A stretch of 64,000 bases of DNA from Escherichia coli (GCF_041886205.1 NZ_CP169030.1); one strand, 5' to 3'. Positions 11,301-54,206 are shown, numbered from the stretch's first letter. Numbers and translations are program-made. Notes: generated by a model not told the origin, from the sequence alone.

Positions 11301-13648
11301 CTGACGGAATGCCCGGGCGTTTCCACCCAGCCGTTCTCCAGCTTCAGTGCCGTGAACGGTGAATCGCTCACAGGCAGGGTGGCCGGTTCAGCCCGTCCCG
11401 GCACAACAACCGTCATCGTGTCCTCACTGACGGACGACACCTGCAGGCGGTCACCGCCGGAGACGCGGAGTCCGGGAATTTTCCCTGTCACCCTCAGACG
11501 CTCGCCGTCTGCCACCGGCATTTTTTCCGGCCGGAACAGCGACCAGCTGCTGTCCAGAGAAGAAATACGCACCACCTGCGTTTCGCCCTGCGCATCCCGC
11601 AGGGTCAGGCTGTGACTCTGCGCCGTCACCCGGTCTATCACATAGCGGTCATGACTGCGTGTCTCCGGGTTCCACTGCTCCATCACCATCCCCGGGCGGT
11701 ACATATCCCGCAGATAACGACTCCGGCTGTCCAGCCAGACCGGTGACAGCGCGGTCATGGTCACCTCCGGATGTCCGAGTACGCCCTGTGTTTTCAGCTC
11801 ACTGCGAATGGTCTGAGTCAGCATGGCCTGTTCCCGTACTCCACTGACCTGCGCCACGCTCTCTTCTCCGGCTTTCACGCTGACCGCAAAATCTCCGGCC
11901 AGCCGGGCATAGCGGACATTACGGTCCGGTTCACTGATGATGGTTGCCGGTCGCTGTTCTCCCCCCTGCCAGCGATATGTGTTCACTCCGGCATCCTTCA
12001 TGGCCATCAGCGCACTGCCGGTACCGGTCCGCTGCCCGCTGTCGATTATCAGGACCTGTACGTTATGCCGTGCGGCACCGTCCAGCAGAGTTAACGTCTC
12101 TTTCAGGGAGAGTTTTTCGCCCTGGTCGACGATAACGGTACTGCCCGGCGTGAAGGTCATGCCCTCCAGCAGCTGACGCCGCCCGGTTATCAGCTCACCG
12201 GACAGACGCTCATCCTGCTTCATGTTCATCTGCGAGCGACGGTCAGCAGCGATAATCTGCACCTCCCGCCCCTGCTCCCGGGCCATCATGACCAGTTCAG
12301 CCACCCGCTCACGCTGCCCGGCTGCACCGCCCTGCCCGGACACAATGGCCAGCGACGGGCGATCCTGTGCCAGCACGCTGACGGCATCGCTGTAACCGGC
12401 CGTCCGGGGAACACTTTTCTCCGGATGTACGGTCACCCGGTTCTGTTTCATGATGTCACGACTGAGTGCCCGGACTGACAGCTCATCGAGCACATGAATC
12501 CCGGACGTGAACAGCCCCTTCTCACGGTCGAGGGGGATAAGCTGCTCACGGCTGATGGCCTCATCGATACCGGCGCGTGCCCGTTCAATCACACCATTTT
12601 CCGGCGGCAGTATGCCGACCGTTCTGGCCAGTACGTCCGTGTACGTGAACTGCACTTTTCGTTCACTTAATCCGGCAATCGCCTGTGTCACCGCCTGCTG
12701 CACATCCGGCCCGTCCTGTGAAGCAGGCCCGGGCGTCAGCGTGCGGAGATCCGCACGCTGATCCGCCGCGTCACGATATGCCCGGATGTCGAACCCGGTT
12801 TCCTTCAGCGTCTGCATCCACTCGGCCATTTTGATCTCCGGATCGACATGCTGTTTGGATTTACGCGTATCCAGCGCCGCCACATCCCGGGATTTCAGCG
12901 AGGCGTCTTCCCCGACGGCCTCCCGGATAGTCTGTGAGCGTCCGGAAAAGGCCTCCACCGGTACACCCGGCATTTCCCACATACCGTGCTTACCAACCAC
13001 TTCAGTTTCATAGCCCAGCGCCTCAACCTGCTCTTTCAGTTTTTCCCGGTAGAGCCTGCCAAAGGCAATCTGATTAGCGTACACATTCTCAATGAACCCC
13101 GTTTTCCCCACTTTGTCACTGCTCAGTGTCTTCCATTCGCCATTATGCTGCGTGACATTAGCCACCACCGCATGCGTGTGTAACTGTGGTTCCTGATCGC
13201 GACTGGTGTCGTGGTTAAACAGTGCCATCACCAGATTACCGGTCAGCACCGTTTCTGACTGTCCGTCCGTCATCACCCGTGTGGAGGCCAGCGCCTCCAC
13301 CTGACGGACAGCAAAATCCACGGCCTGATTATGTGCATCAATCAGGCGCTTATCGCCACCTAACATGGCCATCATGGAGACACTTTTGGGGGCGGAGAAG
13401 GTCAGATCGTAGCCGGGACGATGCCTGTTACTGCCATCCTGCATGCGGCTTAGATCCGCTCCGTCCGGCAGCCTGCCCTCCAGAAGACGGGTAAAAACAT
13501 CCTTATCGACACTGCCCTGCAGCCCCAGCTGTTCAGCCCCCCTGCCGGCCCAGCGTTCTCCCATGCTGCCCAGCACATAGTAATTATCCTTGTCGGTATA
13601 ATAGTTCCCGGCACTTCCGGCCGATCTGACCTGCGCAATACTCATCAT
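8378..13648 (-). CDS. traI: TraI relaxase / DNA helicase I
   Basis: 1756 aa; N-terminus MMSIAQVRSAGSAGNYYTDKDNYY of F TraI; Walker A GYAGVGKT. Confidence 0.97.
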   Translation of the reverse strand: MMSIAQVRSAGSAGNYYTDKDNYYVLGSMGERWAGRGAEQLGLQGSVDKDVFTRLLEGRLPDGADLSRMQDGSNRHRPGYDLTFSAPKSVSMMAMLGGDKRLIDAHNQAVDFAVRQVEALASTRVMTDGQSETVLTGNLVMALFNHDTSRDQEPQLHTHAVVANVTQHNGEWKTLSSDKVGKTGFIENVYANQIAFGRLYREKLKEQVEALGYETEVVGKHGMWEMPGVPVEAFSGRSQTIREAVGEDASLKSRDVAALDTRKSKQHVDPEIKMAEWMQTLKETGFDIRAYRDAADQRADLRTLTPGPASQDGPDVQQAVTQAIAGLSERKVQFTYTDVLARTVGILPPENGVIERARAGIDEAISREQLIPLDREKGLFTSGIHVLDELSVRALSRDIMKQNRVTVHPEKSVPRTAGYSDAVSVLAQDRPSLAIVSGQGGAAGQRERVAELVMMAREQGREVQIIAADRRSQMNMKQDERLSGELITGRRQLLEGMTFTPGSTVIVDQGEKLSLKETLTLLDGAARHNVQVLIIDSGQRTGTGSALMAMKDAGVNTYRWQGGEQRPATIISEPDRNVRYARLAGDFAVSVKAGEESVAQVSGVREQAMLTQTIRSELKTQGVLGHPEVTMTALSPVWLDSRSRYLRDMYRPGMVMEQWNPETRSHDRYVIDRVTAQSHSLTLRDAQGETQVVRISSLDSSWSLFRPEKMPVADGERLRVTGKIPGLRVSGGDRLQVSSVSEDTMTVVVPGRAEPATLPVSDSPFTALKLENGWVETPGHSVSDSATVFASVTQMAMDNATLNGLARSGRDVRLYSSLDETRTAEKLARHPSFTVVSEQIKTRAGETSLETAISHQKSALHTPAQQAIHLALPVVESKKLAFSMVDLLTEAKSFAAEGTGFTELGGEINAQIKRGDLLYVDVAKGYGTGLLVSRASYEAEKSILRHILEGKEAVMPLMERVPGELMEKLTSGQRAATRMILETSDRFTVVQGYAGVGKTTQFRAVMSAVNMLPESERPRVVGLGPTHRAVGEMRSAGVDAQTLASFLHDTQLQQRSGETPDFSNTLFLLDESSMVGNTDMARAYALIAAGGGRAVASGDTDQLQAIAPGQPFRLQQTRSAADVAIMKEIVRQTPELREAVYSLINRDVERALSGLESVKPSQVPRQEGAWAPEHSVTEFSHSQEAKLAEAQQKAMLKGEAFPDVPMTLYEAIVRDYTGRTPEAREQTLIVTHLNEDRRVLNSMIHDVREKAGELGKEQVMVSVLNTANIRDGELRRLSTWETHRDALVLVDNVYHRIAGISKDDGLITLQDAEGNTRLISPREAVAEGVTLYTPDTIRVGTGDRMRFTKSDRERGYVANSVWTVTAVSGDSVTLSGGQQTRVIRPAKERAEQHIDLAYAITAHGAQGASETFAIALEGTEGSRKLMAGFESAYVALSRMKQHVQVYTDNRQGWTDAISKAVQKGTAHDVLEPGADREVMNAQRLFSTARELRDVAAGRAVLRQAGLAGGDSPARFIAPGRKYPQPYVALPAFDRNGKSAGIWLNPLTTDDGNGLRGFSGEGRVKGSGDAQFVALQGSRNGESLLADNMQDGVRIARDNPDSGVVVRIAGEGRPWNPGAITGGRVWGDIPDNSVRPGAGNGEPVTAEVLAQRQAEEAIRRETERRADEIVRKMAENKPDLPDGKTEQAVREIAGQERDRAAITEREAALPEGVLREPQRVREAVREIARENLLQERLQQMERDMVRDLQKEKTLGGD

Positions 13649-39458: not shown

Positions 39459-39842
39459 TTATTCATCATCATTTTTTGGAAAAAATCGTTCCATCTCAGA
39501 TGATACCTTCTCCCTGATATCTTCAACCATATTGGCATATTCAAACTTTGGATTTCCGGAGACATGAGGACTGAGAGACTCAATACCCAAAATTTTCGCT
39601 ACTGATGATTGTGTTTTTACAACGCATTCAAGAAGCAATTTATTAAACTCAGTCTGATTAAATGCAGACTCTTTACGCTCCATCTGAGCCTCATGTACAC
39701 GAAGCCCCAGTTCAAGAAGCATTGAAGCTGTTGCTGAAAAACTGACATCTTTTTCCCTTGCCCCTTCCTGTCGACGCTTCTCAATAATCGCATTTATTTT
39801 TTCATAGGCATCATTGCTGATATACAGGTTCACCTTAGCCAT
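39459..39842 (-). CDS. traM: TraM relaxosome accessory protein
   Basis: 127 aa, F TraM sequence. Confidence 0.95.
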   Translation of the reverse strand: MAKVNLYISNDAYEKINAIIEKRRQEGAREKDVSFSATASMLLELGLRVHEAQMERKESAFNQTEFNKLLLECVVKTQSSVAKILGIESLSPHVSGNPKFEYANMVEDIREKVSSEMERFFPKNDDE

Positions 39843-39849
39843 TAGAGAT

Positions 39850-40250
39850 TACCTTTTTTGAACATAAAATAAAGTTAATTTCGAAACACTAAAATTCATA
39901 ATGCAAACAGGGACGCACCGCTAGCAGCGCCCCTAGCGGTATCCTATAAAAAAACACACCGCGCCGCTAGCAGCACCCCTAATATAAAATAATGTTTTTT
40001 ATAAAAATAGTCAGTACCACCCCTACAAAACGGTGTCGGCGCGTTGTTGTAGCCGCGCCGACACCGCTTTTTTAAATATCATAAAGAGAGTAAGAGAAAC
40101 TAATTTTTCATAACACTCTATTTATAAAGAAAAATCAGCAAAAACTTGTTTTTGCGTGGGGTGTGGTGCTTTTGGTGGTGAGAACCATCAACCTGTTGAG
40201 CCTTTTTGTGGAGTGGGTTAAATTATTTCCTGATGACGTCACCAGAGGTG
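39850..40250. other. oriT: oriT, with F-type nic motif TTTGCGTGGGGTGT|GGTGCTTTTGGTGGTGAG (nic about 40164/40165) and TraM/IHF/TraY binding-region repeats
   Basis: Nic-site consensus of F; imperfect repeats GCACCGCTAGCAGCGCCCC at about 39915-39980; perfect 12-bp IR at 40036-40069. Confidence 0.85.
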
Positions 40251-40255
40251 AGAAA

Positions 40256-40765
40256 ATGAGAAAATGGCTTCTAACGATCTGCCTGATGTTTATAAATGTG
40301 ACCTGCAAGGCTGGTGATTGCTTTGATCTTGCAGGTCGGGATTACAAAATAGACCCTGACTTGCTGAGAGCGATATCATGGAAAGAATCCCGTTACCGGG
40401 TTAATGCCATTGGTATTAATCCGGTAACGGGATATGGCAGCGGATTGATGCAGGTAGACTCCCAGCATTTTAACGAACTGGCCCGCTACGGCATTAAACC
40501 GGAACATCTGACAACAGATCCCTGCATGAACATTTATACCGGTGCTTATTATCTGGCTATAGCCTTTAAAAAATGGGGCGTCTCCTGGGAGGCCGTTGGT
40601 GCATACAACGCAGGATTCAGGAAAACCGAACGCCAGAACCAGCGGCGTCTTGCCTATGCATCAGATGTTTACCGGATTTACAGCGGGATAAAAAACAGTA
40701 AGGGGATCCAGCTTCGTGCATCTGAAAAACCGCTTTCAAAAATGAACAGCTCGCAGAAGAATTAA
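40256..40765 (+). CDS. Orf169 / gene X lytic transglycosylase (P19/IagB family)
   Basis: 169 aa, signal peptide, SLT catalytic motif …AISWKESRY…. Confidence 0.9.
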
Positions 40766-41022
40766 TTTGATATACATTTTAAAAAACCGGTTATGCCGCA
40801 AACGCGGCATGGAAGGCCACACACAAAAATATCATATGAGTGATAATGCTGACTGGCCGAAGCCCCGCAAAGCGGGAACCCATCTTATATATATCCGGTA
40901 ACTGCGCAGCCTCCTGCCAGACCATTTTTCGCGGGCACAATATTTACAGACTACCGAAAAGCCAGTTGATGAAATTGAGGCATCTCAGACGACATATCAA
41001 TGCCGCATAATGATAATATAAG

Positions 41023-41060: not shown

Positions 41061-41882
41061 TCATGACTTCCACTCCCTGAACTGTTCGGCAATCATCCAT
41101 AATGCTTTGTTGATTCGGATATCACCATCAATACCCGTAATGGCTCTTGTCCTGGTATTTTTACCGGAGGCACTTCGCCCCGACAGTCCACCTTTTATCA
41201 TATTCTCCTGAACCCGCTGCCAGGTTGTCCAGAGATCGTTCTGTTTATCCTCCCAACGACGGGGAGTAATTATTTGTTCAGGCGTCACTGGTGTTTTATT
41301 TTCATCTTCATACCTGACCATCAATGCAGCTCTGCCAAATAAATGTTGCTCGTCACTGTTAAGATGTATTTCTTTCATCGCCTCCATATTATCAGTAACC
41401 TTATCAAAGACACCGAGCACTTCATACGCACCCTCGATAACCTGCCCGACAATATCACCTTTATGTGGAACGCGGATTTCGCCAAAATTATTTCCGCACA
41501 CCAGACCATTTGTGCAGACAAAACGAAAAATTCCGGGGATCATCTGATAACTGGATGAACCATCATGTGAATTAAGCAGGATAATTTCAGGAACTTCTTT
41601 CCCGTTAATATTCCCTTCCCTGCGAAGACGTAACATATGTTTACTGTATTCGCGGCGTCCCAAATCGCGAACCCGACTCTGACAGGCAAAGAACGGCTGG
41701 AAACCTTCATCACGTAACTTATTGATGATATTAATGGTTGGAATATATGTATAACGCTCACTCCGGGATTCATGTTTATCACCGGAAAAGACAGACGGCA
41801 CAAACTGCATTAATTCATCATCCGTTAAAGGACGCTCACGGCGAATGGAATTATACCGACCAAAACGGGAAGCTAATCGCAT
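41061..41882 (-). CDS. Orf273, conserved leading-region protein (DUF932-like), function unknown
   Basis: 273 aa, matches the recalled size and position of F orf273. Confidence 0.75.
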   Translation of the reverse strand: MRLASRFGRYNSIRRERPLTDDELMQFVPSVFSGDKHESRSERYTYIPTINIINKLRDEGFQPFFACQSRVRDLGRREYSKHMLRLRREGNINGKEVPEIILLNSHDGSSSYQMIPGIFRFVCTNGLVCGNNFGEIRVPHKGDIVGQVIEGAYEVLGVFDKVTDNMEAMKEIHLNSDEQHLFGRAALMVRYEDENKTPVTPEQIITPRRWEDKQNDLWTTWQRVQENMIKGGLSGRSASGKNTRTRAITGIDGDIRINKALWMIAEQFREWKS

Positions 41883-41992
41883 AACAGTAACTCCTTTATG
41901 AAGGTATAAAATTAATAAAAATTTTTTCGCGTAATATCATCCTCCCTCGGTTATCATTAACAATAAGATAACAATTCCGAGGGAAAGGACCA

Positions 41993-42289
41993 TCAAATCA
42001 GGTCAGTTCGGGACTGACCAACCTGCCGGGTGAAAAGCAGTAACAGCGCGATCAGCTCATCAGCGTTTTTTCTGACAAGAGGGGTATGATTCTCCAGGCT
42101 ATCCAGTAAGTCATGCAGCTCATTATTGACCTGGTGGAGCACCTTAAAAAGCGCCCCTGAATCCTGGTTGCTCTGATAGGCGAGACTGGCCTTAACAGCG
42201 TTATTCTGCATGATCCCGATTTGTGCGATTGCGTCTTTCTGCTGATCGCCTGTTGGCTGATAAGTGGTGTTAAAAGAAAATGCGCTCAT
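41993..42289 (-). CDS. Conserved leading-region small protein (orf95-like), function unknown; first gene after repeat A
   Basis: 98 aa; SD AGGAG; paralog of 43829-44074 (shared GDQQKDAIxQIxIMQ motif). Confidence 0.7.
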   Translation of the reverse strand: MSAFSFNTTYQPTGDQQKDAIAQIGIMQNNAVKASLAYQSNQDSGALFKVLHQVNNELHDLLDSLENHTPLVRKNADELIALLLLFTRQVGQSRTDLI

Positions 42290-42309
42290 GTTTCATTCTC
42301 CTGTGTCTG

Positions 42310-43030
42310 ATGTTTTCAGCCCCCATCATCTGTTGAGTTTCGGGAGCCGCGGTTTTGACGTTTTGCGGGGACCTGCTCTTTGCTCCCTCCGGTATTCACC
42401 ATCACCTGTTTGAGAACCTTCGCCGCATGGGGCATCACTGCCACGGCCGGAAACGACTGTCCGGGGGCAGACCGCAAAAGTTTTTGCCTGCTTTTGGGCA
42501 AAAAGTTTTGCGGGATGTGCATTTCACCCCTGGACTGGCGGAGACGGTTGTGGCTGTCTATGCCCCCGGCGACAGGGGCTTAAACAGGTGAATCGCACCG
42601 GACAGAACAACGGGCAGGGACCCGCCGCAACGACGTGAAGCGCGGTTTGCGAAACGGCGTTGCTCCTTACATCCCGGCGTCTTTTTGCCGGGATGCCGGG
42701 AGCGCAGGTCACGGCGCGACAAGGGTGGCGCGACCGTTCCGGTCGCTGAAAACCCGGGTTTTTGCGTCAGGGATGGAAGCCGCCAGGGCGGAGACAGCTC
42801 CGCTGGCTCCGTTCACGACAGCCCGCCCCGCCAGGGGGACGCCCGGAAAAGGCACTGCCAGGAGAACAACAAAACAGAGAGTAATCAGAGCAGCAGAAAA
42901 AAGAAGAACAGTAGCAGGAACCGCAACATCATCAGTAACAGACAAATGACAGGTCTGAAAAGACAGAAGCCCACAGCAGAACGTCCGCGTAATGAAAGGG
43001 GCGGCGCGTCAGCGCGGCCTTTTTTACCAG
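42310..43030 (-). repeat. Leading-region structured repeat copy A (candidate ssDNA promoter, Frpo/ssi-like)
   Basis: One of four direct copies; extensive dyad symmetry; abuts RBS of 41993-42289. Confidence 0.6.
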
Positions 43031-43066
43031 CACTGACACCGTGTGCCAGTGCAGCCTCTGGCGACG

Positions 43067-43381
43067 CTACAGCGCTGCCAGTTCATTCAGGATATGGGGG
43101 TTTCGCTCAACCATTTTCATCAGCAGGATGGCTTGTTTATTAGGTTTAGCCAGTCCCTGCTCCCAGTTCTGCAGGGTAGTGACGCCGGTATGTAAATACT
43201 GTGCGAAAACAGCCTGTGATAGCTTCAATTTTTCGCGTACCGCTTTCACCTCATCGGGCGTCATAGTGACGGGTTTTGCGCTGACCTTGTGTGTTCTCAA
43301 AGTTTTTTTGCCAGCATTAAACTCTCCCCACGCAGCCATGCCTTCCTGCAATTCGCTAAAAATATCACGATCTTTCATCAA
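43067..43381 (-). CDS. HigA-like HTH (XRE-family) antitoxin
   Basis: 104 aa with C-terminal HTH; 4-nt overlap (ATGA) with upstream toxin gene. Confidence 0.75.
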   Translation of the reverse strand: MMKDRDIFSELQEGMAAWGEFNAGKKTLRTHKVSAKPVTMTPDEVKAVREKLKLSQAVFAQYLHTGVTTLQNWEQGLAKPNKQAILLMKMVERNPHILNELAAL

Positions 43382-43716
43382 CGCCCCCTTCGTCTGGCCT
43401 GTTCAAGCATTTCGCGTAAAATATCGCGCTGTGCTTTCGTCAAATCATCTTTCTGGTCTTTGTCATACAGGGTGAACAACAGAAAGTGGGATTTTTCCAG
43501 ATACCAGTAGTAAATCACTCTGATGCCGCCGCGTTTCCCCTTGTTACGCCTTGCATCCCCAAACCGTACCTTGCGCAATCCCCCGGTATGCTGGATAACA
43601 TCACCGCATAACGGATTTTTCAGCAACATCTGCTGAAACTCCCGAAACTCATCATCCGTGAAATATTCAGCACGATGCCGCTCGAACGGCGGCAACTCGA
43701 CAAATAGTGCTTCCAT
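43378..43716 (-). CDS. HigB/RelE-superfamily toxin (addiction-module killer protein)
   Basis: 112 aa with …KGKRGGIRVIYYW…LLFTLYDKDQKDDLT… motif typical of HigB-like toxins; toxin-first gene order. Confidence 0.75.
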   Translation of the reverse strand: MEALFVELPPFERHRAEYFTDDEFREFQQMLLKNPLCGDVIQHTGGLRKVRFGDARRNKGKRGGIRVIYYWYLEKSHFLLFTLYDKDQKDDLTKAQRDILREMLEQARRRGR

Positions 43717-43828
43717 AACACCTCACAAAATCCCCTTTACTTGGGGATATTATACCCCCCAACATGGGGACTCTTCAATTGAGTTCAGACAAAACCTCCT
43801 GCTTTAGCAAGCGTTTCATAGTGCCCAA

Positions 43829-44074
43829 TCAGAAGTTCCAGCCCATCCGCTTTTTTTTGAAAACGGCTGTATGTGAAACCATCGCATCGATCAGTGCATC
43901 AAGCTCTGCGCGGAGCTCCAGTATCCTGGTTGTAAACGTATTTTTGCCCTGGCTGGTCATCCAGTTTAAATATGCCTGTACCGCGCGTTCCTGCATGATT
44001 TCGATTTGGGTAATAGCATCTTTTTGCTGATCGCCAGCAGATTTAAAATTTTTTCTGAAAACAAATGCCCCCAT
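43829..44074 (-). CDS. Hypothetical small protein, paralog of 41993-42289
   Basis: 81 aa sharing GDQQKDAI(A/T)QI(G/E)IMQ motif. Confidence 0.55.
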   Translation of the reverse strand: MGAFVFRKNFKSAGDQQKDAITQIEIMQERAVQAYLNWMTSQGKNTFTTRILELRAELDALIDAMVSHTAVFKKKRMGWNF

Positions 44075-44142
44075 TTTAATTTCTCCTGTGTTCTGTAATA
44101 CCTGGATATCCGGGTAAAGGGGCGTTTACGCCCCCCGCTGAT

Positions 44143-44475
44143 TTACATGTTCTGCTCGCTATGTATTCTTCTATTCACAATTGAAAATAAATGTTTTTTT
44201 TGCGATATCACTTTTCTTTTTATAATTCGCACAATTTCAGGCATCGACTTGTTCAGGGGGATCCATGCAGTATCCCCGTTCAGTTCATCATATACACACC
44301 CATAGATATGAAGCATTCCGTTCATTACAAAGCAGTACATTGAAAAATGTTCATATTTTTTCTCCGCACTGATTAACTGAAAATAACCTTTTATTAAACC
44401 CTGTTTCGGTGAAGGATTAATTAACCAGCCATTATCCAAAGATAAACAAATATGCTCAATTATTTTCTTTTCCAT
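44143..44475 (-). CDS. Hypothetical protein in low-GC segment
   Basis: 110 aa ORF, AT-rich island, followed by hairpin terminator at about 44100-44125. Confidence 0.45.
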   Translation of the reverse strand: MEKKIIEHICLSLDNGWLINPSPKQGLIKGYFQLISAEKKYEHFSMYCFVMNGMLHIYGCVYDELNGDTAWIPLNKSMPEIVRIIKRKVISQKKHLFSIVNRRIHSEQNM

Positions 44476-44529
44476 ATTTACTCCAACGAAAGCTTTATCC
44501 TAATTAATGGGGCATTGCCGCCCCTTGTG

Positions 44530-44799
44530 TTAAATGGCGTAGCCTCTTATCTGACTCAAAAACTGTTTGAAGTGATCAGCTTCCGCAATGTTGATATGGC
44601 GGAACTGCGTATCCACACCCCGGCTGAGCGCGTAGCTATAGCTGAAAGCCATCTTTTCCGGGTGGCTTTTGCGATATTTTTTCAGCTCATTCAGACTGCT
44701 GAACTCCAGGAGGTCCCACTCTTCTCGGGTGTTTTTTTTCTTTTCGGCAACAAGAAGCGTGTACGACGCGGTGTTAACGTGGATATTTCGGGTACTCAT
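44530..44799 (-). CDS. Hypothetical protein, first gene after repeat B
   Basis: 89 aa; SD upstream abutting repeat B. Confidence 0.5.
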   Translation of the reverse strand: MSTRNIHVNTASYTLLVAEKKKNTREEWDLLEFSSLNELKKYRKSHPEKMAFSYSYALSRGVDTQFRHINIAEADHFKQFLSQIRGYAI

Positions 44800-44814
44800 C
44801 CTGCTTTCTCCTCT

Positions 44815-45420
44815 CTCTGGTTTTCAGCCCCCATCATCTTTTGAGTTTCGGGAGCCGCGGTTTTGACGTTTTGCGGGGACCTGCCTTTTGTTCCCTCCGG
44901 TATTAACCATCACCTTTTTGAGAACCTTCGCCGCAAGGGGCATCACTGCCACGGCCTGACGCACCTGTCCTGGGCAGAACGCAAAATTTTTTACCGGGTT
45001 CTGGGTAAAAAATTTTGTGGGCTGTTCATTTACCCTGGACAGTCAGTGCGGCAGGTTGTGGCTGTATCAGCCCCCGGCGACAGGGGCTTAAACAGGTGTA
45101 TGGCACCGGACACAACAACGGGCAGGGACCCGCCGCAACGACGTGAAGCGCGGTTTGCGAAACGGCGTTGCCCCTTACATCCCGGCGGCCTTTTGCCGGG
45201 ATGCCGGGAGCGCAGGCCACGGCGCGACAGAGGCGGCGCGACCGGAACGGTCGCTGCAAGCCCGGGGTTTCGCGTCAGGGATGGAAGCCCGCCAGGGCGG
45301 AGACAGCTCCGCTGGCTCCGTTCACGACAGCCCGCCCCGCCAGGGGGACGCCCGGAAAAGGCATAAGCAGGAGAACAACAAAACAGACAATAATCAGGGC
45401 AGCAGTAATCAGAGTCAGAA
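44815..45420 (-). repeat. Leading-region structured repeat copy B
   Basis: Direct copy of repeats A/C/D. Confidence 0.6.
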
Positions 45421-45697
45421 CAGGAGGAAAAAGAGAATAATCAAAGGGAAGGTGATGTGATTTCTGACAGGTCATAAACAGAGAAGGCGGGGGAAAAGAA
45501 CGGGCGCCGCAGGCGCACGTTCATCCCCGTTCCCGGAGGGAAACGGCCTTCCTGGCAGTCTGGTTGTTCATGCCCGTACAATGCCAGCAAGGAGAAAGGG
45601 GCCACCGGCGAACCAGCAGCCCCTTTATAAAGGCGCTTCAGTGCAGTCAGACCAGCATCAGCCCTGAAAAGGCGGGCCTGCGCCCGCCTCCAGGTTG

Positions 45698-45856
45698 CTA
45701 CTTACCGGATTCGTAAGCCATGAAAGCCGCCACCTCCCTGTATCCGTCTCTGTAACGAATCTCGCACAGCGATTTTCGTGTCAGATAAGTGAATATCAAC
45801 AGTGTGAGACACACGATCAACACACACCAGACAAGAGAGCTGCGTGGTAGTTTCAT
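45698..45856 (-). CDS. hok: Hok-family toxin (flmA/hok) with overlapping mok-like ORF to 45997
   Basis: 52 aa [52 protein letters not shown]; hairpin terminator 45668-45690. Confidence 0.9.
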
Positions 45857-46130
45857 GGCCTTCTTCTCCTTGCGCAAAGCGCGGTAAGAGGCTATCCTGA
45901 TGTTGTCTAAGCATGCAGGGGCCTCGTGGGTTAATGAAAAATTAACTACGGGGCTTTTGTCCTTCTGCCACACAACACGGCAACAAACCACCTTCACGTC
46001 ATGAGGCAGAAAGCCTCAAGCGCCGGGTACATCATAGCCCATATCCCTGCACGCTGACCACACTCACTTTTCCTGAAAATAACCCGCTCACTCAGGCTGT
46101 TTACGGGTAATCTGTGTGATTGTTGCCGCA

Positions 46131-46849
46131 TCACGCTGCCTCCCGGAGTTTGTTCGGCACCATCCACCGCTCCATCTCACGGACAGCGTGACCGGCCTCT
46201 CTTGCTGCAAGACTGGCTTCCGCAATAACCTGCCAGAACGGCATATCCTGCCACTGCCAGCGTTCCATTCCGGCCAGTGACGGAAAACGCTCGCCCCACT
46301 GCCAGAACAGGGTTTCCAGGTCATGCTCTGCCACCCGGTCACTCCAGCGTGCATGCCAGCTTCCGACTGTTTCCGGCGAATGGAATGCCAGTTCGATTTC
46401 AGCCTGAGCGACCAGCGCCTGGTACGCACGGGCTTTCTGCTCTGCCTCCCGTGCCTGCTGGCGGCTGTACTTCTGCATGACCAGCGCGGATTTATGGCGA
46501 CTGCGCTCCCTGACACGAAACCGCACCGACGGAAACAACCGCTCTGCTGCATCACCAGGAAGGGGAAGGAGGCAGACCTCGCCCTGTGTTTCAATCAGCA
46601 CATCGATGGCATACAGCCACTGAAGACGGTTGCCGTGCAGTTCTTCTGCGGTCAGGGACGGCATGAAAAATCGCAGGTCAGACAGCGATATCCTGCGGCT
46701 TCCGTTCAGACAGCGGAAAAACGCCCCCGCATACGGATATTCGCCAGCGTGTTACCCTGATGGCGGCGTTTTTCTGTCTCCGCCACCGCCCGCCATGCGG
46801 CCTGTTGCTCTGTGCTGAGGGGAACCAGTGCCTGTGAACGTACGCTCAT
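46131..46849 (-). pseudogene. psiA: psiA (plasmid SOS inhibition A), apparent frameshift near 46742
   Basis: N-terminal 36 codons ([43 protein letters not shown]) are in a different frame from the remaining PsiA body (from …EYPYAGAFFRCLNG…). Confidence 0.7.
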
Positions 46850-47280
46850 ACCTGACCTCCTTCCGCCATCAGGATATGGATGATGTCGTTAACGCTGTAC
46901 CCCTGCGTATCCAGTGACGCCGCCAGTGCCAGTGAATGACTGACGGCTTCCGGTGCAAACCGCCGCTGTACCTGAACCACCGCAAACGGCTCACCACCGG
47001 CATTCACCAGAACCAGCACCCAGACCTGAGAGACATCGCCCGGTGAACATAACGCCAGGTGAAAACGTTCGTGAGCAGGCGTGAAACGGACCTGGACGGG
47101 GGAAAAGCCGCCAAACTCGCTGCCATACTCGCCGTTCATCGTCCAGTTATCCGGCGCATCCAGCTCCCGCATCACGGCATGTGTGAGTTCACGACGTTCA
47201 TCACTTCCGACAGCCCGGATGTCTTCATATTCCTGTGCGCTCATGGTCTGTAATACATTCAGGGTCAGTTCAGTTTTCAT
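46846..47280 (-). CDS. psiB: PsiB, anti-SOS (RecA inhibitor)
   Basis: 144 aa [12 protein letters not shown]…; stop abuts psiA start. Confidence 0.93.
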
Positions 47281-47334
47281 CACGGTATCTCCCTTGCTGC
47301 CGCCCCGTCTCCGGCGGGGCGGTGTGGTTGTTCA

Positions 47335-49293
47335 TCAGGCGGCATCAGCCAGGTTATCGGTGCGTTCAGTGGTATCCGTCTGTGGATGTGGTGCACACAT
47401 CCAGCCAGGCACCCAGCGGTTGTCTTTCATATGGTGCTCTGCATGTTCAGCCGCATCGCTTTTCTTCATCTTCTCCGCGTCCCGTGCGGCACCGGACAGT
47501 CCGGCGTCATTCAGGGCGTCGATAATCTGCGGCTTTTTCAGGTGTCCGAAGAAGTTTGCTTTTGTCGGCTGCCACCAGTCACGCATGTGGAATCCGATAG
47601 CGGTTTCCAGCGAGTCAAGCGGACTGCGTGACGTGTGACCACACTCACGGGTCTGGACACCGTTAAGGCTGCATGCGGTGCAGAAACTGAGCAGGGACAA
47701 CAACACCTCCTGGCGGAGTGACAGGAACGTCGTCATGTCCCGTGACCATCCCTCCGCCAGCAGGGCTGCAAGACGGGCTTTTTCTGCCATCAGCGCCATG
47801 AATGCGGCACCTTCCTTCCCCGACGGCGCATCGCTGGTCAGCGAAGAATGCCCACATTCCAGACGAATTTTTGCGGGATTGCTGTACGCTCCGCTGCCAA
47901 ACACATTCAGGCAGAGCGTCCATGCCAGCAGTGCCAGGGATTTGTCCGGCTGCTGCATCAGTGCTGCCTGGACTGCCAGCGTGCGTTCGGAAGACATTTT
48001 CGTCAGCAGCGGCAGACTGATTTCCTCCACTGACGCTTTTTCCTGCACCTGTTCCGTGCGGTCAGCGTCGTCAGCCGCATCATCCTCACTGCGTAACTGC
48101 ACACCACGCTGGACACATACGTTTCCATAACGCCAGGACACCACCACGCCACTTCCGGCACGCATCTCCGGCGTCCACGCCCTGACCTTCGCCATGCAGT
48201 CAATCAGCTTCATTTCTGCTTCCGGCAGGTCGGATTCCTCACACTGGTTTTCCAGCGCGTCGTAACGAGCCATCAGTTCGTTCAGGCGTTCGTCTTCCGC
48301 CTCCGTCAGCACCGCTTCCGGCTCCGGCAGACTGCGGTATGCCCGGGCATCTTCACGGCACTCACCGACAGGCTCCATGCGTCCGGCGCACCATCCCCAG
48401 CCTTCGGCTTCCCGAAGGAACTCTGCGACAGCCTGGAGTTTTTCCAGCAGGGCAGCATCGAGCGCCACGCAGTCCACATAGCCACCCTCGTTGTCGCTGA
48501 ACAAATCGGTGCGCAGTTCATCTGGCGAGAAGGCATCAGCCCCCACGAAGCGGAATTTACTGTTCCCCGCCACCGCCACTTCACTTTCGGTCACCAGACG
48601 ACGAATGGTCTGTACTTCCGGTTTTCCGCCCCATCCCGACTGACAGGCAGCTTCAAACACCTGTACCTGACGCGCGGTGTCGTTCTCCAGCGCCAGCGCC
48701 TGACAGTGCTCTGTGGTGATGCGGTCTTCTGCCAGCGCATCGAGGATGACAGGCGCAAGGTCAGCCAGTTTCAGCATTCGCTGAACGTGGCGAGGCGAAT
48801 AACCCAGCAAATCACCGATTTGTGCAGGTGTTTTGCCTTCCTGCGCCATTGCGCGGAATCCGGCAATCTGTTCAGCAGGGTGCATATCCCGACGATGACC
48901 GTTCTCGGTCATCGATGCAGCCGTCGCCAGTTCCTGCGGAATAATTTTCACGCGGACAGGCCAGTCAGCCGGAATGATGCCACGTTCTGCCAGCATATTG
49001 AGTGCTGCCAGTCTGCGACCACCTGCGGCGACACCGTAGCGGTCACCAGGCAGGGCATGAACAACCAGATTCTGCAGCAGGCCGACACCTTTAATTGACT
49101 CCGCCAGTTCGCTGACGGACTCCACAGAATACGGCACCGTGCGCACATTCAGCGGTGATTTAATCAGTGAAGCCAGCGGCACGCTCACTTCCTCCGTCTG
49201 CGCCAGCAGGGCAGACAGTGCCGTTTCCTGTGTTTTTGACAGTTTACGGCTGGATTTACGCCCCGTTTTTGCCTTAGACTCTGTAACTGACAT
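47335..49293 (-). CDS. ParB-like nuclease-domain protein of leading region (orf652-like)
   Basis: 652 aa; N-terminal ParB/Srx-like motif (…GLLQNLVVH…GGRRLAA…). Confidence 0.8.
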   Translation of the reverse strand: MSVTESKAKTGRKSSRKLSKTQETALSALLAQTEEVSVPLASLIKSPLNVRTVPYSVESVSELAESIKGVGLLQNLVVHALPGDRYGVAAGGRRLAALNMLAERGIIPADWPVRVKIIPQELATAASMTENGHRRDMHPAEQIAGFRAMAQEGKTPAQIGDLLGYSPRHVQRMLKLADLAPVILDALAEDRITTEHCQALALENDTARQVQVFEAACQSGWGGKPEVQTIRRLVTESEVAVAGNSKFRFVGADAFSPDELRTDLFSDNEGGYVDCVALDAALLEKLQAVAEFLREAEGWGWCAGRMEPVGECREDARAYRSLPEPEAVLTEAEDERLNELMARYDALENQCEESDLPEAEMKLIDCMAKVRAWTPEMRAGSGVVVSWRYGNVCVQRGVQLRSEDDAADDADRTEQVQEKASVEEISLPLLTKMSSERTLAVQAALMQQPDKSLALLAWTLCLNVFGSGAYSNPAKIRLECGHSSLTSDAPSGKEGAAFMALMAEKARLAALLAEGWSRDMTTFLSLRQEVLLSLLSFCTACSLNGVQTRECGHTSRSPLDSLETAIGFHMRDWWQPTKANFFGHLKKPQIIDALNDAGLSGAARDAEKMKKSDAAEHAEHHMKDNRWVPGWMCAPHPQTDTTERTDNLADAA

Positions 49294-49356
49294 ATATTTC
49301 TCCTTTGACCGGGATGGTTGTATGTCTGCCGGACGCGTTCCCGTCCGGCACCTCTC

Positions 49357-49632
<276 letters not shown>

Positions 49633-49646
49633 TCACAATCAGTCGT

Positions 49647-50186
49647 TCAGAACGGGATATCGTCTGAAAACCCGTAATCCTCACCCTCTGGCGGTTGCGG
49701 CTGAGGCTCCGGCTGCGCGGCCTTACGTCCACGGCCTTTCGTTTTCGCGCCTCCTTTTTTCGTACCTGCCTCCGCCAGTGGTTCCAGCTGAGGCTGACCG
49801 CTGAACTGTTGCGCCTCTTCCGGCTGAGTCTGAGCACCTGCGGCACGTCCCAGCATCTGCATGGTGCCCGTGGTCTTAACAAGAATTTCAGTGACGTAAC
49901 GGGTGATACCGTTATCTTCCCAGCTACGGGTGCGAAGCTGGCCTTTGATGTAGACCTGCGCGCCCTTACGCAGATATTCACCTGCCACTTCCGCGAGCTT
50001 GCCGAACAGCACCACGCGATGCCATTCTGCCTGCTCCCGCATCTCCCCCGTCTGTTTGTCACGCCAGCTTTCTGACGTGGCCACCTGCAGGTTTGCCACT
50101 GCGCCCCCGTTGGGGATGTAACGGACTTCCGGATCTTTTCCCAGGCGTCCTACGAGAATGACCTTGTTAATGCCACGAACTGCCAT
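49647..50186 (-). CDS. ssb: Plasmid single-strand DNA-binding protein
   Basis: [23 protein letters not shown]… OB-fold and acidic C-terminal DDIPF tail; SD AGGAG. Confidence 0.95.
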
Positions 50187-50204
50187 GATGTGTCTCCTTC
50201 TGTT

Positions 50205-50930
50205 GATGTTTTCAGCCCCCATCATCTGTTGAGTTTCGGGAGCCGCGGTTTTGACGTTTTGCGGGAACCTGCTGCTGTATTCCCTGTGGTATGAACTTCA
50301 CCCGTTTGAGAACCTTCGCCGCAAGGGGCATCACTGCCACGGCCTGACGCCCCTGTCCTGGGCAGAACGCAAAATTTTTTACCGGGTTCTGGGTAAAAAA
50401 TTTTGTGGGCTGTTCATTTACCCTGGACAGTCAGTGCGGCAGGTTGTGGCTGTATCAGCCCCCGGCGACAGGGGCTTAAACAGGTGAATGGCACCGGACA
50501 CAACAACGGGCAGGGACCCGCCGCAACGACGTGAAGCGCGGTTTGCGAAACGGCGTTGCGCCTCACATCCCGGCGGCCTTTTGCCGGGATGCCAGGAGCG
50601 CAGGCCACGGCGCGACAGAGGCGGCGCGACCGGAACGGTCGCTGCAAGCCAGGGTTTCGCGTCAGGGATGGAAGCCCGCCAGGGCGGAGACAGCTTCGCT
50701 GGCTCCGTTCACGACAGCCCGCCCCGCCAGGGGGACGCCCGGAAAAGGCATAAGCAGGAGAACAACAAAACAGACAGTAATCAGAGCAGCAGAAAAAAGA
50801 AGAACAGGAGCAGTAGCAGGAACAACATCATCAGTAACAGACAAATGACAGGTCTGAAAAGACAGAAGCCCACAGCAGAATGTCCACGTAATGTAAGGGG
50901 CGGCGCGTCAGCGCGGCCCCTTTCACGCCA
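50205..50930 (-). repeat. Leading-region structured repeat copy C (immediately upstream of ssb)
   Basis: Direct copy; abuts ssb RBS. Confidence 0.6.
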
Positions 50931-50991
50931 CCGGCGCGCGGTCTCCCGGCGCGGGCAGACGGGCATTTATCCTCCCGCCTGCCCTGAGTCT

Positions 50992-51555
50992 TCAGGCACG
51001 CAGACGAATAATCATCGTCGAAGCATCGGTATAAGCAAACGTGCCGCGCGGCAGCTCCTCGCGGACGTCAGAAAACGGTAACAGCTTCTCCTGCTGGCGT
51101 GGCCCGTTGAGACAGACGGCGACCAGCACGCCACCCGGACGCAACAGGGAAAAAGCCCGCAGGATATGCCGGATATCCTGCCCGTGGCTGAACGGCGGAT
51201 TCATGATTATCCGGCTGTAATACTGCACCGGCTGCCATTCCATGAAGTCGCCACACTGTACCCTGACACCGTTAAAATTTTCCCGCAGATACCGGACCAG
51301 CCCGCTGTTAATCTCCACAGCATCACACATGGCCCCCGGCGCGGTATCCCGAATCGCCCGCAGTATGGCTCCGGTGCCGGCAGAGGGCTCCAGAATGTGA
51401 TCATGGTTGCTGATCTCCGCCAGCGTCACCAGGCGATCACAGACCGGGGCAGGTGTCACAAAGAGCTGAGATTCAGCCCGGATTTCAGCAACTGGCGCAG
51501 CGTTATCCAGCCTTGCGCGCATCAGCCGGATACGTTCTCTTAACTGACTGTGCAT
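50992..51555 (-). CDS. Orphan DNA amino-methyltransferase (motif I EPSAGTGA, motif IV NPPF)
   Basis: 187 aa with SAM-binding and (N/D)PP(F/Y) catalytic motifs; no adjacent restriction gene. Confidence 0.7.
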   Translation of the reverse strand: MHSQLRERIRLMRARLDNAAPVAEIRAESQLFVTPAPVCDRLVTLAEISNHDHILEPSAGTGAILRAIRDTAPGAMCDAVEINSGLVRYLRENFNGVRVQCGDFMEWQPVQYYSRIIMNPPFSHGQDIRHILRAFSLLRPGGVLVAVCLNGPRQQEKLLPFSDVREELPRGTFAYTDASTMIIRLRA

Positions 51556-51601
51556 GTCATTATCTCCGTCATACCCCGGGGCTTTTCCCCGGGGATAAGC
51601 C

Positions 51602-52963
51602 TTATTTCTGCGGGATTTCCGTGATTTTCATGTCGGTGATATACACATTCACCAGGCGGAAATTATTGTCCATTGTGCGGCGGTAACGATATGCCCCGTG
51701 GTCTTCTGCCTCTGCCACACTGCGCACGGCCTTACAGTCCCGGGGCAGGGCGGCCCACTGTGCCTTTGTCATTTCCCGGAAACCTTCTCCCGGATAGTTG
51801 ACTACCGGCGGACGCTTCGCGGCCTGTCTGGCGACGGCGGCCTCTTCTGCCGATGGTGCTTTGTAGTCCGTGATGCGATCGGGCGTCACTTTCATCGTGC
51901 CGCTGTACCCGAGAAAACTGTAATTTGGCGTTGTGACTGAACTCACTGCCCCGTTGCTTTTGTTCACGCGGATGATGGTCAGCCACTCGCCCCGGCTGAA
52001 AACCTGTCCTCCCGGCTCAAAATCCTGTGTCCGGGTAACCACGCCGACGCTTTCTTCCAGCATGGCACGCTCATAGATCAGGCGGTTCTGATAGTGGTTA
52101 ACCCAGCGTTGCTGATGCTGAATCTGCCGTTCATGGCAGCGGATCGCAATTTCGCGGGCCTGCTCCGTGGTGATGATGTCATCATCCAGGGCCGACCATA
52201 ACGATCGACTTCCTTCATACTGGCTTTTTTCTGCCGGGCGCGGATACGTATCCAGCGGGAAACAGGCACTGATACGGTCACAACTGCTGATGAGTTTTGC
52301 CATATTCAGATCCAGCGATTCAGCCCGCCACATCGTCAGATATTTCTGCGACTGCGCGATGGTCTTTTCAGACTTGCGCAAATCAGCTTCGATTTTTTTG
52401 ATACGACGCCAGCGAACGTCCGGACGTTCTTTATACTTCGCGTGAAGCAGTGCCGACCGCGCCCGCTCCTCCCAGTATTCCGCACGTTCAAAGAGCATCA
52501 CGGCACGTTTCATACCATTTTCAATACGCTGCGCATCACGACGGGCGCGGCGTTCGCTGTGATGCCCCACAAGGATCGGCTGACCGGGCGGGATCATCGC
52601 GGCCAGTCTTTCCACTTCCTCAAGTGCCTGTGCGGATTCACTGGCCCGCTTTCCGCTGTATCCGGTAAACCGCTCCGCCCGTGCTTCCTGACGTTCAGCG
52701 AGCGTGCTGTCTTCATCCTCAATCTCTCCGGCAAGTGAGAGGAGCACGTCTTCCCGGCCCGGTGTCCAGGCTGGCGCGACAAACAGCGTCTGTTTTGGTG
52801 CCCAGCGGAAACCGGCATCATGTACTTTCTTATACGTCTCCGGGTCAAGACGTGACGCGGCATACAGGCGCAGTTTGTTGTCATCCGGTGAGTAGGTCGC
52901 GCGGTACATCTGCACAGGGCTGGCAGCTTCCGGGGCGGTCATGGTGATTGCTGCTAATGTCAT
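51602..52963 (-). CDS. Hypothetical 453-aa leading-region protein
   Basis: Long ORF with coiled-coil middle region; family not recognised. Confidence 0.6.
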   Translation of the reverse strand: MTLAAITMTAPEAASPVQMYRATYSPDDNKLRLYAASRLDPETYKKVHDAGFRWAPKQTLFVAPAWTPGREDVLLSLAGEIEDEDSTLAERQEARAERFTGYSGKRASESAQALEEVERLAAMIPPGQPILVGHHSERRARRDAQRIENGMKRAVMLFERAEYWEERARSALLHAKYKERPDVRWRRIKKIEADLRKSEKTIAQSQKYLTMWRAESLDLNMAKLISSCDRISACFPLDTYPRPAEKSQYEGSRSLWSALDDDIITTEQAREIAIRCHERQIQHQQRWVNHYQNRLIYERAMLEESVGVVTRTQDFEPGGQVFSRGEWLTIIRVNKSNGAVSSVTTPNYSFLGYSGTMKVTPDRITDYKAPSAEEAAVARQAAKRPPVVNYPGEGFREMTKAQWAALPRDCKAVRSVAEAEDHGAYRYRRTMDNNFRLVNVYITDMKITEIPQK

Positions 52964-53014
52964 AAAATGTTCTCCTTCCGTCTGTTGCCGCCCCTCGCGG
53001 GGCGGCTCACCTCA

Positions 53015-53245
53015 TCAGTTAAAAGCGCGTTTCAGTTCGAGTGTGCGGAGCACCTGCCCGAAGGCCGTGTTTTTCATGGCGGGGATGTGTACACCACGCC
53101 CCCGGTGAAAACTCCTGGCAATGTGTCGTCCGAAGGCTTTCAGCACGGGGTCAATTTCCGGCGCGGGGATGTCTTCGCGTCTGAAACGGGGATGACGGCG
53201 GGGCTTTACAGCCGCTGCGGAAGGTGAAACAATACTTACTGTCAT
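53015..53245 (-). CDS. Hypothetical basic small protein, first ORF after repeat D
   Basis: 76-aa ORF. Confidence 0.35.
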   Translation of the reverse strand: MTVSIVSPSAAAVKPRRHPRFRREDIPAPEIDPVLKAFGRHIARSFHRGRGVHIPAMKNTAFGQVLRTLELKRAFN

Positions 53246-53479
53246 AATTTAGCCTCTTATGACGTTAATTAATGAAACCGTAAAGACTGTTCGTGCAGTC
53301 TCTGCGGTGTGGATTAAGCAGGTCCCTGACCTGCTTTTTTCATATCTGCATCTGACGCTTTCCGGTGTTTTCCTCCTTCTGTTCCTGCGTTCTCATTACC
53401 TGCCAGCCGGATGACTGACAGAACAAATAAATGCGTATTGCCGGAGCCTGAAATAAATCCTGATTTTTAAAGAACATCA

Positions 53480-54010
53480 CCCGTTGAGTTTCGGGAGCCG
53501 CGGTTTTGACGTTTCGCGGGAACCTGCTGCTGTATTCCCTGTGGTATGAACTTCACCCGTTTGAGAACCTTCGCCGCAAGGGGCATCACTGCCACGGCCT
53601 GACGCACCTGTCCTGGGCAGAACGCAAAATTTTTTACCGGGTTTTGGGTAAAAAATTTTGTGGGCTGTTCATTTACCCTGGACAGTCAGTGCGGCAGGTT
53701 GTGGCTGTATCAGCCCCCGGCGACAGGGACTCATACGGGTGTGTGGCACCCGGCAGGCAATGAGCAGGGACCCGCTGCAACGACGTGAAGCGCGGTTTGC
53801 GAAACGGCGTTGCTCCTTACATCCCGGCGGCCTTTTGCCGGGATGCCAGGAGCGCAGGCCACGGCGCGACAAGGGCGGCGCGACCGTTCCGGTCGCTGCA
53901 AGCCGGGGGTTTTGCGTCAGGGATGAAAGCCCGCCAGGGCGGAGACAGCTCCGCTGGCTCCGTTCACGACAGCCCGCCCCGCCAGGGGGACGCCCGGGAA
54001 AGCCATAAAC
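53480..54010 (-). repeat. Leading-region structured repeat copy D
   Basis: Direct copy (left end diverged). Confidence 0.6.
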
Positions 54011-54206
54011 AGGAGAGGAACGGAAAGAAGAGGAAGAAGAACAGTAACCACAGAAACATAACATCAGGAAAAAACATTCCGGACACATCACAAACGGGAA
54101 GGGAAGCGGGCGACGCGCCAGCGTGGCCCGCTTCCCTTCCGGCAGGCGCCAGCCTGCCAGGGGTTTTCGCGCGGGCTGACAGGCGGCCTCCACCGCCTGC
54201 CCTGTA

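Follow-up and report, generated by a model that had tools for sequence, protein, structure and literature searches.

The closest described relatives of the element studied here are the class-1 single-stranded DNA (ssDNA) promoters of the F plasmid and of IncI1 plasmids. In F, two such elements are known as Frpo1 (also ssiD or ssp1a) and Frpo2 (ssp1b), on the evidence of Masai & Arai 1997, as described in citing papers, and of PMC9849209. They are 92% identical and lie ~5 kb apart, each being required for early expression of its own downstream genes, and early expression in transconjugants is lost when either Frpo1 or Frpo2 is deleted (Couturier et al. 2023, PMC9849209). The ssi1-3 elements of ColIb-P9/pESBL are the class-1 ssDNA promoters of IncI1 plasmids (PMC12672017; Bates 1999 and Nasim 2004, as described in citing papers). 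Transcription starts at pESBL ssi1-3 have been mapped by 5' rapid amplification of cDNA ends, and the F Frpo1/2 operons are induced early (Wen et al. 2025, PMC12672017). An Frpo-driven anti-CRISPR was effective on the leading transferred strand (T-strand) only, and 13,089 Frpo homologues have been counted in 6,006 conjugative elements (Samuel et al. 2024, PMC11541004). The ssp1/Frpo transcripts also prime strand conversion in vivo (bioRxiv 10.64898/2026.01.09.698686). Here we describe four repeat units, A to D, in a 64,000-nt stretch of Escherichia coli NZ_CP169030.1 (the window; all coordinates count from its start). On the basis of homology, T-strand assignment, a conserved hairpin, the lack of a consensus duplex promoter and a position next to a Shine-Dalgarno sequence and ATG, we conclude with a probability of about 0.9 that every one of the repeats is an intergenic cassette whose core is a class-1 ssDNA promoter (Frpo/ssiD/ssp1), homologous to ColIb-P9 ssi1-3. 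Both the element and its multi-copy modular layout are already known and have been experimentally characterised in close relatives.

The four units (Table 1) were delimited by repeat search and MAFFT alignment. A 300-nt direct-repeat family has four members in register (starting at 42402, 44910, 50298 and 53553), as does a 264-nt family (42608, 45116, 50504 and 53758), while an 81-nt family marks the left ends (42297, 44805, 50193 and 53448). A further stretch of 139 nt is common to units A and C only (42889-43027 and 50788-50926). Alignment of the four units gave a mean column identity of 80% with long invariant runs, and no fifth copy was found elsewhere in the window, a BLAST search with the published element returning exactly four matches. 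An earlier note, made from the sequence alone, had placed four direct copies in the same orientation at these positions; repeat search, alignment and BLAST all agree, and both of the motifs it quoted were found. Its description of the copies as near-identical was too strong, as they are mosaics at 80-95% identity, with cores that match that of copy B at 87.5% (A), 95.1% (C) and 90.8% (D). The copies are indeed richer in GC, if modestly so, at 58-60% compared with 54% in the surrounding 16 kb.

Identity with Frpo, which had been proposed in the earlier note and left unconfirmed, was established by alignment of the copies to each other and to the published elements. Using the F ssiD sequence (= Frpo, D90178) from Supplementary Table 2 of Samuel et al. 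(PMC11541004), blastn aligned all four copies end to end (335-351 of 351 nt), with identities of 94.9% for A (351/351 nt), 87.9% for B, 83.9% for C and 79.7% for D. The core of unit B is 95.4% identical to F Frpo2. Both F units, read from NC_002483, align with the window units along their whole ~600-nt length; Frpo1 and Frpo2 thus sit in units of at least 600 nt that align throughout, and the long repeat is not peculiar to the present plasmid. The match to the IncI1 elements is partial. ColIb-P9 ssi1-3 (326-331 nt) align by BLAST over their central 77-118 nt only, at 75-82%, with an additional 28-nt stretch to one side of the hairpin, in what we term the extension. The two groups have in common an AT-rich palindromic tip and a TTGYGG...CCCTGGAC stretch, but differ in the lower stem and leader. 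The ColIb-P9/pESBL elements likewise form three dispersed direct repeats, each heading a leading-region operon and each with a long T-strand hairpin followed by small hairpins. Membership of the IncI1 ssi1-3 subgroup was considered and rejected, full-length similarity being lacking. Judged by sequence, the window units are related to ColIb ssi but form a distinct IncF subgroup.

The direction of transfer could be read from the window itself. The F nic core GTGGGGTGTGG occurs exactly once, on the + strand, with traM on one side and the SLT/orf169 open reading frame (ORF) on the other. The + strand is therefore the T-strand, which enters 5'-first, running towards higher coordinates, and serves as the template for minus-strand genes. 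All four units lie 2-14 kb 3' of the nic core on this strand, and the genes they head are all on the minus strand, so that both the leading-region location and the use of the T-strand as template for the downstream genes are as in class-1 ssDNA promoters. A homologue of F ssiE, the second single-strand initiation site of the F leading region, is also present just inside the leading region (40760-40948, 91% over 190 nt). The earlier note had suggested folding the minus strand as ssDNA. This polarity is reversed: the + strand is the transferred one, and it also folds better, unit A reaching -184.7 kcal/mol (z-score -9.9) as the + strand and -165 kcal/mol (z -5.2) as the minus strand.

A stable ssDNA hairpin was sought in each copy by minimum free energy folding of the cores with DNA parameters, and each + strand copy gave one long imperfect hairpin of 315-319 nt. 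This agrees with the published Frpo stem-loop of 328 nt and falls within the ~300-330 nt of class-1 T-strand stem-loops. To assess conservation, we aligned 16 homologues: the four window copies, F Frpo1 and Frpo2, three from pUC4224_1, four from pHXH-4, and one each from NZ_CP083889, pSLT and a Citrobacter plasmid. RNAalifold returned the same hairpin for this set, in which 100 pairs were counted. Paired cells made up 98.1%, compared with 40-50% when the partners were slid by 1-3 columns, and compensatory changes on both sides were seen at six pairs (28 cells) compared with at most three pairs and at most three cells in the slid controls. The observed covariation was reached by none of 500 shuffles. 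No Rfam 15 family was found inside the units at the gathering threshold (nine matches occur in the window, the nearest being AS-pc01 and sok).

A consensus scan of both strands found no sigma-70 site within any unit at a threshold of 9 matches in 12 positions. This is consistent with an element unlike a conventional duplex promoter, although lack of a consensus is no proof of inactivity. The best candidate for the -35 and -10 hexamers would be TTGAGA-N17-CATCAC on the 5' arm of the hairpin. This block is invariant in the four copies, and the segment that holds it is 95-100% identical between them, the highest of any segment of the unit. TTGAGA is invariant in 16 of the 16 aligned homologues (columns 91-96), the candidate -10 CATCAC is located at a conserved internal loop, and more distant relatives read TTGAGA-N17-19-TAAACN. 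A TTGACG at the base of the stem was also considered as a -35 and rejected, because the working Frpo-acrIIA4 construct of Samuel et al. lacks its pairing partner and because no conserved -10-like hexamer follows 16-19 nt downstream. In the literature searched we found no text that spells out the Frpo -35 and -10 hexamers.

The placement of the units with respect to genes follows a common plan. In A, B and C, a Shine-Dalgarno sequence (AGGAGA) and an ATG come 12-17 nt after the conserved left end, ...GATGATGGGGGCTGAAAAC; the start codons are those of a 98-aa ORF (ATG 42289), an 89-aa ORF (ATG 44799) and ssb (ATG 50186, the true start, and not the mechanically listed 50225). In D, ~200-235 nt separate the copy from its first ORF (ATG 53245). 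The junctions had been described in this way from the sequence alone, with D about 235 bp off, and the description holds. The ~230-nt gap and the position of unit D recur in pUC4224_1, pHXH-4 and NZ_CP083889. Like Frpo1 in F, unit A stands before an orf95-like/DUF932 pair, and unit C stands before ssb as does Frpo2/ssp1b; the F units share the same sequence (80-95% to ssiD), which aligns through the extension and a purine tract, and the same T-strand hairpin. The difference lies in number, with two units in F and four here. Of the extra units, D heads a methyltransferase-DUF3560 block that is common in IncFII-like plasmids, whereas B heads an uncommon block that contains a toxin-antitoxin pair. 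The hairpin tip is F Frpo1-like in A and of the Frpo2 type in B, C and D.

Taken with the published work on F and ColIb/pESBL, from which activity in the single-stranded form, timing and priming would carry over to the window units by analogy, these features suggest the following sequence of events. During conjugation, the + strand would enter the recipient 5'-first from the nick at ~40164 and, before complementary-strand synthesis, each ~315-nt inverted repeat would snap into its imperfect hairpin, forming a pseudo-duplex promoter for the host sigma-70 RNA polymerase. As the T-strand is the template, transcription would run towards lower coordinates, into the adjoining minus-strand block. If TTGAGA-N17-CATCAC is the promoter, the 3' arm would be the first template, and the RNA would round the loop and follow the 5' arm as far as the gene, with a leader of ~270 nt. 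The outcome would be a burst of establishment, anti-SOS and anti-defence proteins. The same transcripts could prime complementary-strand synthesis, and duplex formation would remove the hairpins and so switch the promoters off.

A 12.5-kb region of the window is ~94% identical to the leading regions of at least 5000 IncF-type plasmids from Escherichia, Klebsiella, Salmonella and Shigella, with ssb, psiB, psiA, a ParB-like protein, DUF3560 and a class I methyltransferase among the annotations on the matching plasmids. The 350-nt core was found at 13,414 places in the 5000 best PLSDB records, a mean of 2.7 per record. Among 60 evenly spaced records, three copies were present in 40, two in 11, one in 7 and four in 2, while a sensitive PLSDB search with the full unit gave a mean of 3.0 per record and at least four copies in 7 of 60. 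Repeats R1-R3 have been described by Venturini et al. 2013, with loss of a whole 9.7-kb module between repeats (PMC3817090). A leading region organised into modules by four copies, which had seemed striking from the sequence alone, is thus a published and common architecture; since the multi-copy layout before early gene blocks has already been published, four copies are not unusual. Indeed, pHXH-4 (NZ_MH257956.1) has four units in the same order as the window: orf98, unit, small genes, unit, hok-psiA-psiB-parB-ssb, unit, methyltransferase-DUF3560-orf76, unit. It differs in the second module, where two small ORFs lie between the first two units in place of the 89-, 110- and 81-aa ORFs and toxin/MqsA-antitoxin of the window. 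No PLSDB record covers more than 53% of 41990-45480, and it is the content of this second module that is particular to the window.

Segment by segment, the identities between copies are discordant. Hairpin A has a tip that matches the F Frpo1 tip at 88% but the tips of B, C and D at ~65%. The lower stem of hairpin C is a chimera, with a D-like left base (92%) and a B-like right base (99%), and F Frpo2 shows the opposite combination, B-type on the left arm and D-type on the right. These patterns point to recombination or gene conversion between copies, in agreement with the literature; copies that swap segments by homologous recombination would account for both the mosaic make-up and the gain and loss of whole modules, the extra fourth module included. 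In NZ_CP083889.1, the unit upstream of the orf98 homologue is cut down to 53 nt (4464-4516) and an IS110-family element lies beside the ssb-proximal unit (10100-11071); these are examples of cassette decay and disruption.

The promoter hairpin makes up about half the length of the repeated unit. In A, the parts are a leader, the Frpo hairpin, a multi-hairpin extension, a purine tract and a terminator-like hairpin. The extension, to the right of each hairpin and hence upstream in the sense of transcription, is conserved over ~220 nt and is present in both F units. Its short GC-rich hairpins include CATCCCGGC...GCCGGGATG and GCGACCG-NNN-CGGTCGC, and the T-strand folds to between -53 and -55.5 kcal/mol. 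In Citrobacter, the former hairpin becomes CACCCCGGC...GCCGGGGTG, a T-A to C-G change that keeps its place, ColIb ssi1-3 show at the corresponding place a hairpin whose stem (CACACC/GGTGTG) is unrelated, and the loop of GCGACCG-NNN-CGGTCGC is flipped between copies, GAA in some and TTC in others. Together, these suggest that the structure of the extension is maintained. The purine tract beyond it, read on the sense strand, is rich in pyrimidine and poor in G; F and pSLT keep this composition with a varying sequence, the pSLT tract being (AACAGG)n. We found no role described for this upstream half of the unit in the literature searched. Tentatively, and with the balance of probability against it, we consider that the hairpin run and the 80-83% pyrimidine tract might be a functional insulator as opposed to hitch-hiking sequence. 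If so, they would form a Rho-loading and termination zone that halts polymerases arriving from the upstream module before the next promoter hairpin, or a structural roadblock that likewise stops or slows complementary-strand synthesis; passage of either would otherwise flatten the hairpin. In another class of ssDNA promoter, ssp2, a roadblock has been demonstrated. On this view the cassettes would be self-contained, each comprising a terminator/roadblock, an ssDNA promoter and a leader. Separately, the 139 nt shared by A and C close with a GC-rich hairpin, GGCGGCGCGTCAGCGCGGCC, after which the + strand reads TTTTTT (42985-43027 and 50885-50926); the F Frpo2 and Citrobacter units each have a similar hairpin at their far end. 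This hairpin probably terminates transcription of the upstream block, or acts as a bidirectional terminator.

Several observations weigh against the assignment of all four units as ssDNA promoters, or at least against its details. The hexamer pairs on either arm all score below the normal consensus level, the candidate -10 CATCAC matching at 3 of 6 positions only. The working Frpo-acrIIA4 construct (PMC11541004) begins at ...GGCGACAGGGAC on the 3' arm and lacks the partner strand of the candidate -35 TTGAGA. An alternative promoter would be TTGYGG-N15-17-TGGACN, on the 3' arm near the tip and after an A-tract, which lies in the sole stretch that BLAST can align between ColIb ssi and the window copies. 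As for the hairpin, 69 of the 100 stem pairs are invariant among the 16 homologues, which leaves the covariation evidence with few informative positions, in sequences that are related. Finally, the activity of each individual copy is something we infer by analogy, and this applies above all to the extra copy B and to C, which has a mismatched, chimeric lower stem and the weakest fold of the four (-92.2 kcal/mol). It could be argued that only some copies are working ssDNA promoters and that the rest, notably B or the chimeric C, are passive recombination products, intergenic cassettes duplicated and taken along during module shuffling. The copies are mosaics, C joining a D-type left arm to a B-type right arm in that weakest fold, copy number varies from one to at least four among related plasmids, and NZ_CP083889 has a shortened copy. 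However, identity among the four copies is 95-100% for the candidate promoter block and for the arm that pairs with it, every copy keeps the arrangement of leader, Shine-Dalgarno sequence and ATG, and the blocks they head have no consensus double-strand promoter of their own in the unit. F Frpo2, a chimera of the same kind, is moreover functional in vivo (PMC9849209). We therefore regard the presence of passive copies as unlikely.

Two other readings were considered. Dispersed repeats with long internal inverted repeats might be a non-autonomous mobile element resembling a miniature inverted-repeat transposable element, or remnants of one, that spread within the plasmid. Yet their orientation is constant, and their positions relative to start codons are syntenic in pUC4224_1, F, pHXH-4 and NZ_CP083889. 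The inverted repeat is internal, one ~315-nt hairpin, and not terminal; there is no transposase nearby, no target duplications were seen, and the sequence is that of the experimentally defined Frpo. Membership of a transposable element family was accordingly rejected on the constant orientation, syntenic positions and internal inverted repeat, and we consider a mobile element extremely improbable. The other reading is that the units encode a small membrane protein, in a minus-strand frame ending ...LLFSAALITLCFVVLL..PFPGVPLAGRAVVNGASGAVSALAGFHP. The frame ...PFPGVPLAGRAVVNGASGAVSALAGFHP is open in B, C and D, and in pHXH-4 two copies carry an 88-aa hypothetical protein as annotated by the Prokaryotic Genome Annotation Pipeline (PGAP). 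The earlier note had argued from ORFs that change frame between copies that the units are non-coding; the conclusion stands, while the argument holds only in part, one frame being common to B, C and D. A 1-nt deletion shifts this frame in copy A, and the pSLT homologue has an in-frame stop between the hydrophobic tract and the conserved end, from which we take the region not to be coding. In Citrobacter, the homologue of the small-ORF region diverges with indels. Such amino-acid conservation as exists merely follows near-invariant nucleotides, and a CT-rich tract gives Leu, Phe and Ser in any frame. A coding role is thus very improbable, and the assignment of the units as intergenic cassettes around an ssDNA promoter is retained.

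Table 1. Coordinates of the repeat units, their parts and the gene blocks they head (ss, single-stranded).
Feature	Coordinates	Strand	Remarks
traM	39459-39842	-	one side of nic core
F-type oriT nic core GTGGGGTGT/GG	40156-40166	+	exact match, sole one in window
SLT/orf169 ORF	40163-40765	+	other side of nic core
Unit A	42297-43030	+	734 nt; heads orf98-DUF932 block; repeat search and MAFFT alignment
Unit B	44805-45420	+	616 nt; heads 89-aa, 110-aa and 81-aa ORFs and toxin/MqsA-family antitoxin pair
Unit C	50193-50930	+	738 nt; heads ssb-DUF905-parB-like-psiB-psiA-hok/sok
Unit D	53448-54021	+	574 nt; heads orf76-DUF3560-methyltransferase block across ~200-nt spacer
Hairpin A (class-1 ssDNA promoter core)	42339-42653	+	-102.6 kcal/mol; first pair 42339-42653
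Hairpin B	44845-45163	+	-99.9 kcal/mol
Hairpin C	50233-50551	+	-92.2 kcal/mol
Hairpin D	53488-53805	+	-99.6 kcal/mol
Best candidate promoter TTGAGA-N17-CATCAC (putative)	42410-42438, 44918-44946, 50306-50334, 53561-53589	+	5' arm
Extension	42668-42885, 45176-45395, 50562-50785, 53818-54035	+	run of short GC-rich hairpins
Purine-rich tract	42860-42919; equivalents from ~45396, ~50741, ~53984	+	80-83% purine on T-strand
Block A	41061-42289	-	annotation of relatives
98-aa ORF	41993-42289	-	block A
DUF932 protein	41061-41882	-	block A
Block B	43067-44799	-	
89-aa ORF	44530-44799	-	block B
110-aa ORF	44143-44475	-	block B
81-aa ORF	43829-44074	-	block B
Toxin	43378-43716	-	block B
MqsA-family antitoxin	43067-43381	-	block B
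Block C	45441-50186	-	ssb, DUF905, ParB-like, psiB, psiA, hok/sok
ParB-like	47335-49293	-	block C
psiB	46846-47283	-	block C
Block D	50992-53245	-	
76-aa ORF	53015-53245	-	block D
DUF3560 protein	51602-52963	-	block D
Class I SAM methyltransferase	50992-51555	-	block D

Two further T-strand hairpins of other kinds were found in the window. One, at 55325-55562 (+), has 32-nt arms that are 91% complementary (-79.3 kcal/mol, z -5.8) and lies upstream of an anti-restriction (ArdB/KlcA-like) ORF at 54864-55400. Its arms resemble Frpo'4 of Samuel et al., that is, class 2, ssp2 or 'Frpo3', and its 3' arm reads TTGCAA...TACGAT. The other, at 57946-58170 (+), has 30-nt arms that are 83% complementary (-95.4 kcal/mol, z -6.2), lies upstream of the next minus-strand block and is possibly a class 3 ssDNA promoter. 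Class 2 (ssp2/'Frpo3') and class 3 promoters resemble the four repeats in placing a T-strand hairpin before anti-restriction or methylase genes (Wen et al. 2025; Fraikin et al. preprint; Samuel et al. 2024), but are unrelated to them in sequence, and class 2 differs further in a clear -10 (TACGAT) on the 3' arm near the base. With the four repeats, the promoter-like hairpins in the window total six, which is also the number reported for pESBL.

Searches of the small block ORFs against NCBIfam and PHROGs returned only an MqsA-family antitoxin, a methyltransferase fold and PHROGs of unknown function. The toxin (112 aa, phrog_5869) and MqsA-family antitoxin (104 aa) lie at the downstream end of the second module and have a good duplex promoter of their own, TTGAAG-18-TATAAT (43778-43749); their DNA is closest to that of Klebsiella aerogenes and Salmonella plasmids, at 95-97%. 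The 81-aa and 110-aa ORFs (43829-44475) gave no PLSDB megablast match and no NCBIfam or PHROG hit and, because they are placed behind an ssDNA promoter, are candidate establishment or anti-defence genes. In the third module, psiA (46134-46849, minus strand) is apparently frameshifted near its 5' end: one frame matches residues 36-239 of a reference PsiA (99.5%) and another matches residues 1-49 (70.7%, with an insertion), and this could be a pseudogene or a sequence error. Rfam sok matches at 45854-46025. An Rfam match to AS-pc01, the antisense RNA of pHK01, occupies the space that separates unit D from the 76-aa ORF (53240-53339, +, 98.9 bits) and has its own terminator-like hairpin (53316-53336); mRNA from unit D would thus carry a leader that the antisense RNA can target.

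Frpo-type elements set when an incoming conjugative plasmid first expresses its genes, those for SOS inhibition, SSB, anti-restriction and methylation, and are for this reason relevant to the spread of resistance plasmids. This role is already established for F and IncI1 plasmids, and the window provides a further example with a less common four-module layout. It also illustrates cassette recombination as a way to plug in a new early module, in this case one with a toxin-antitoxin pair.

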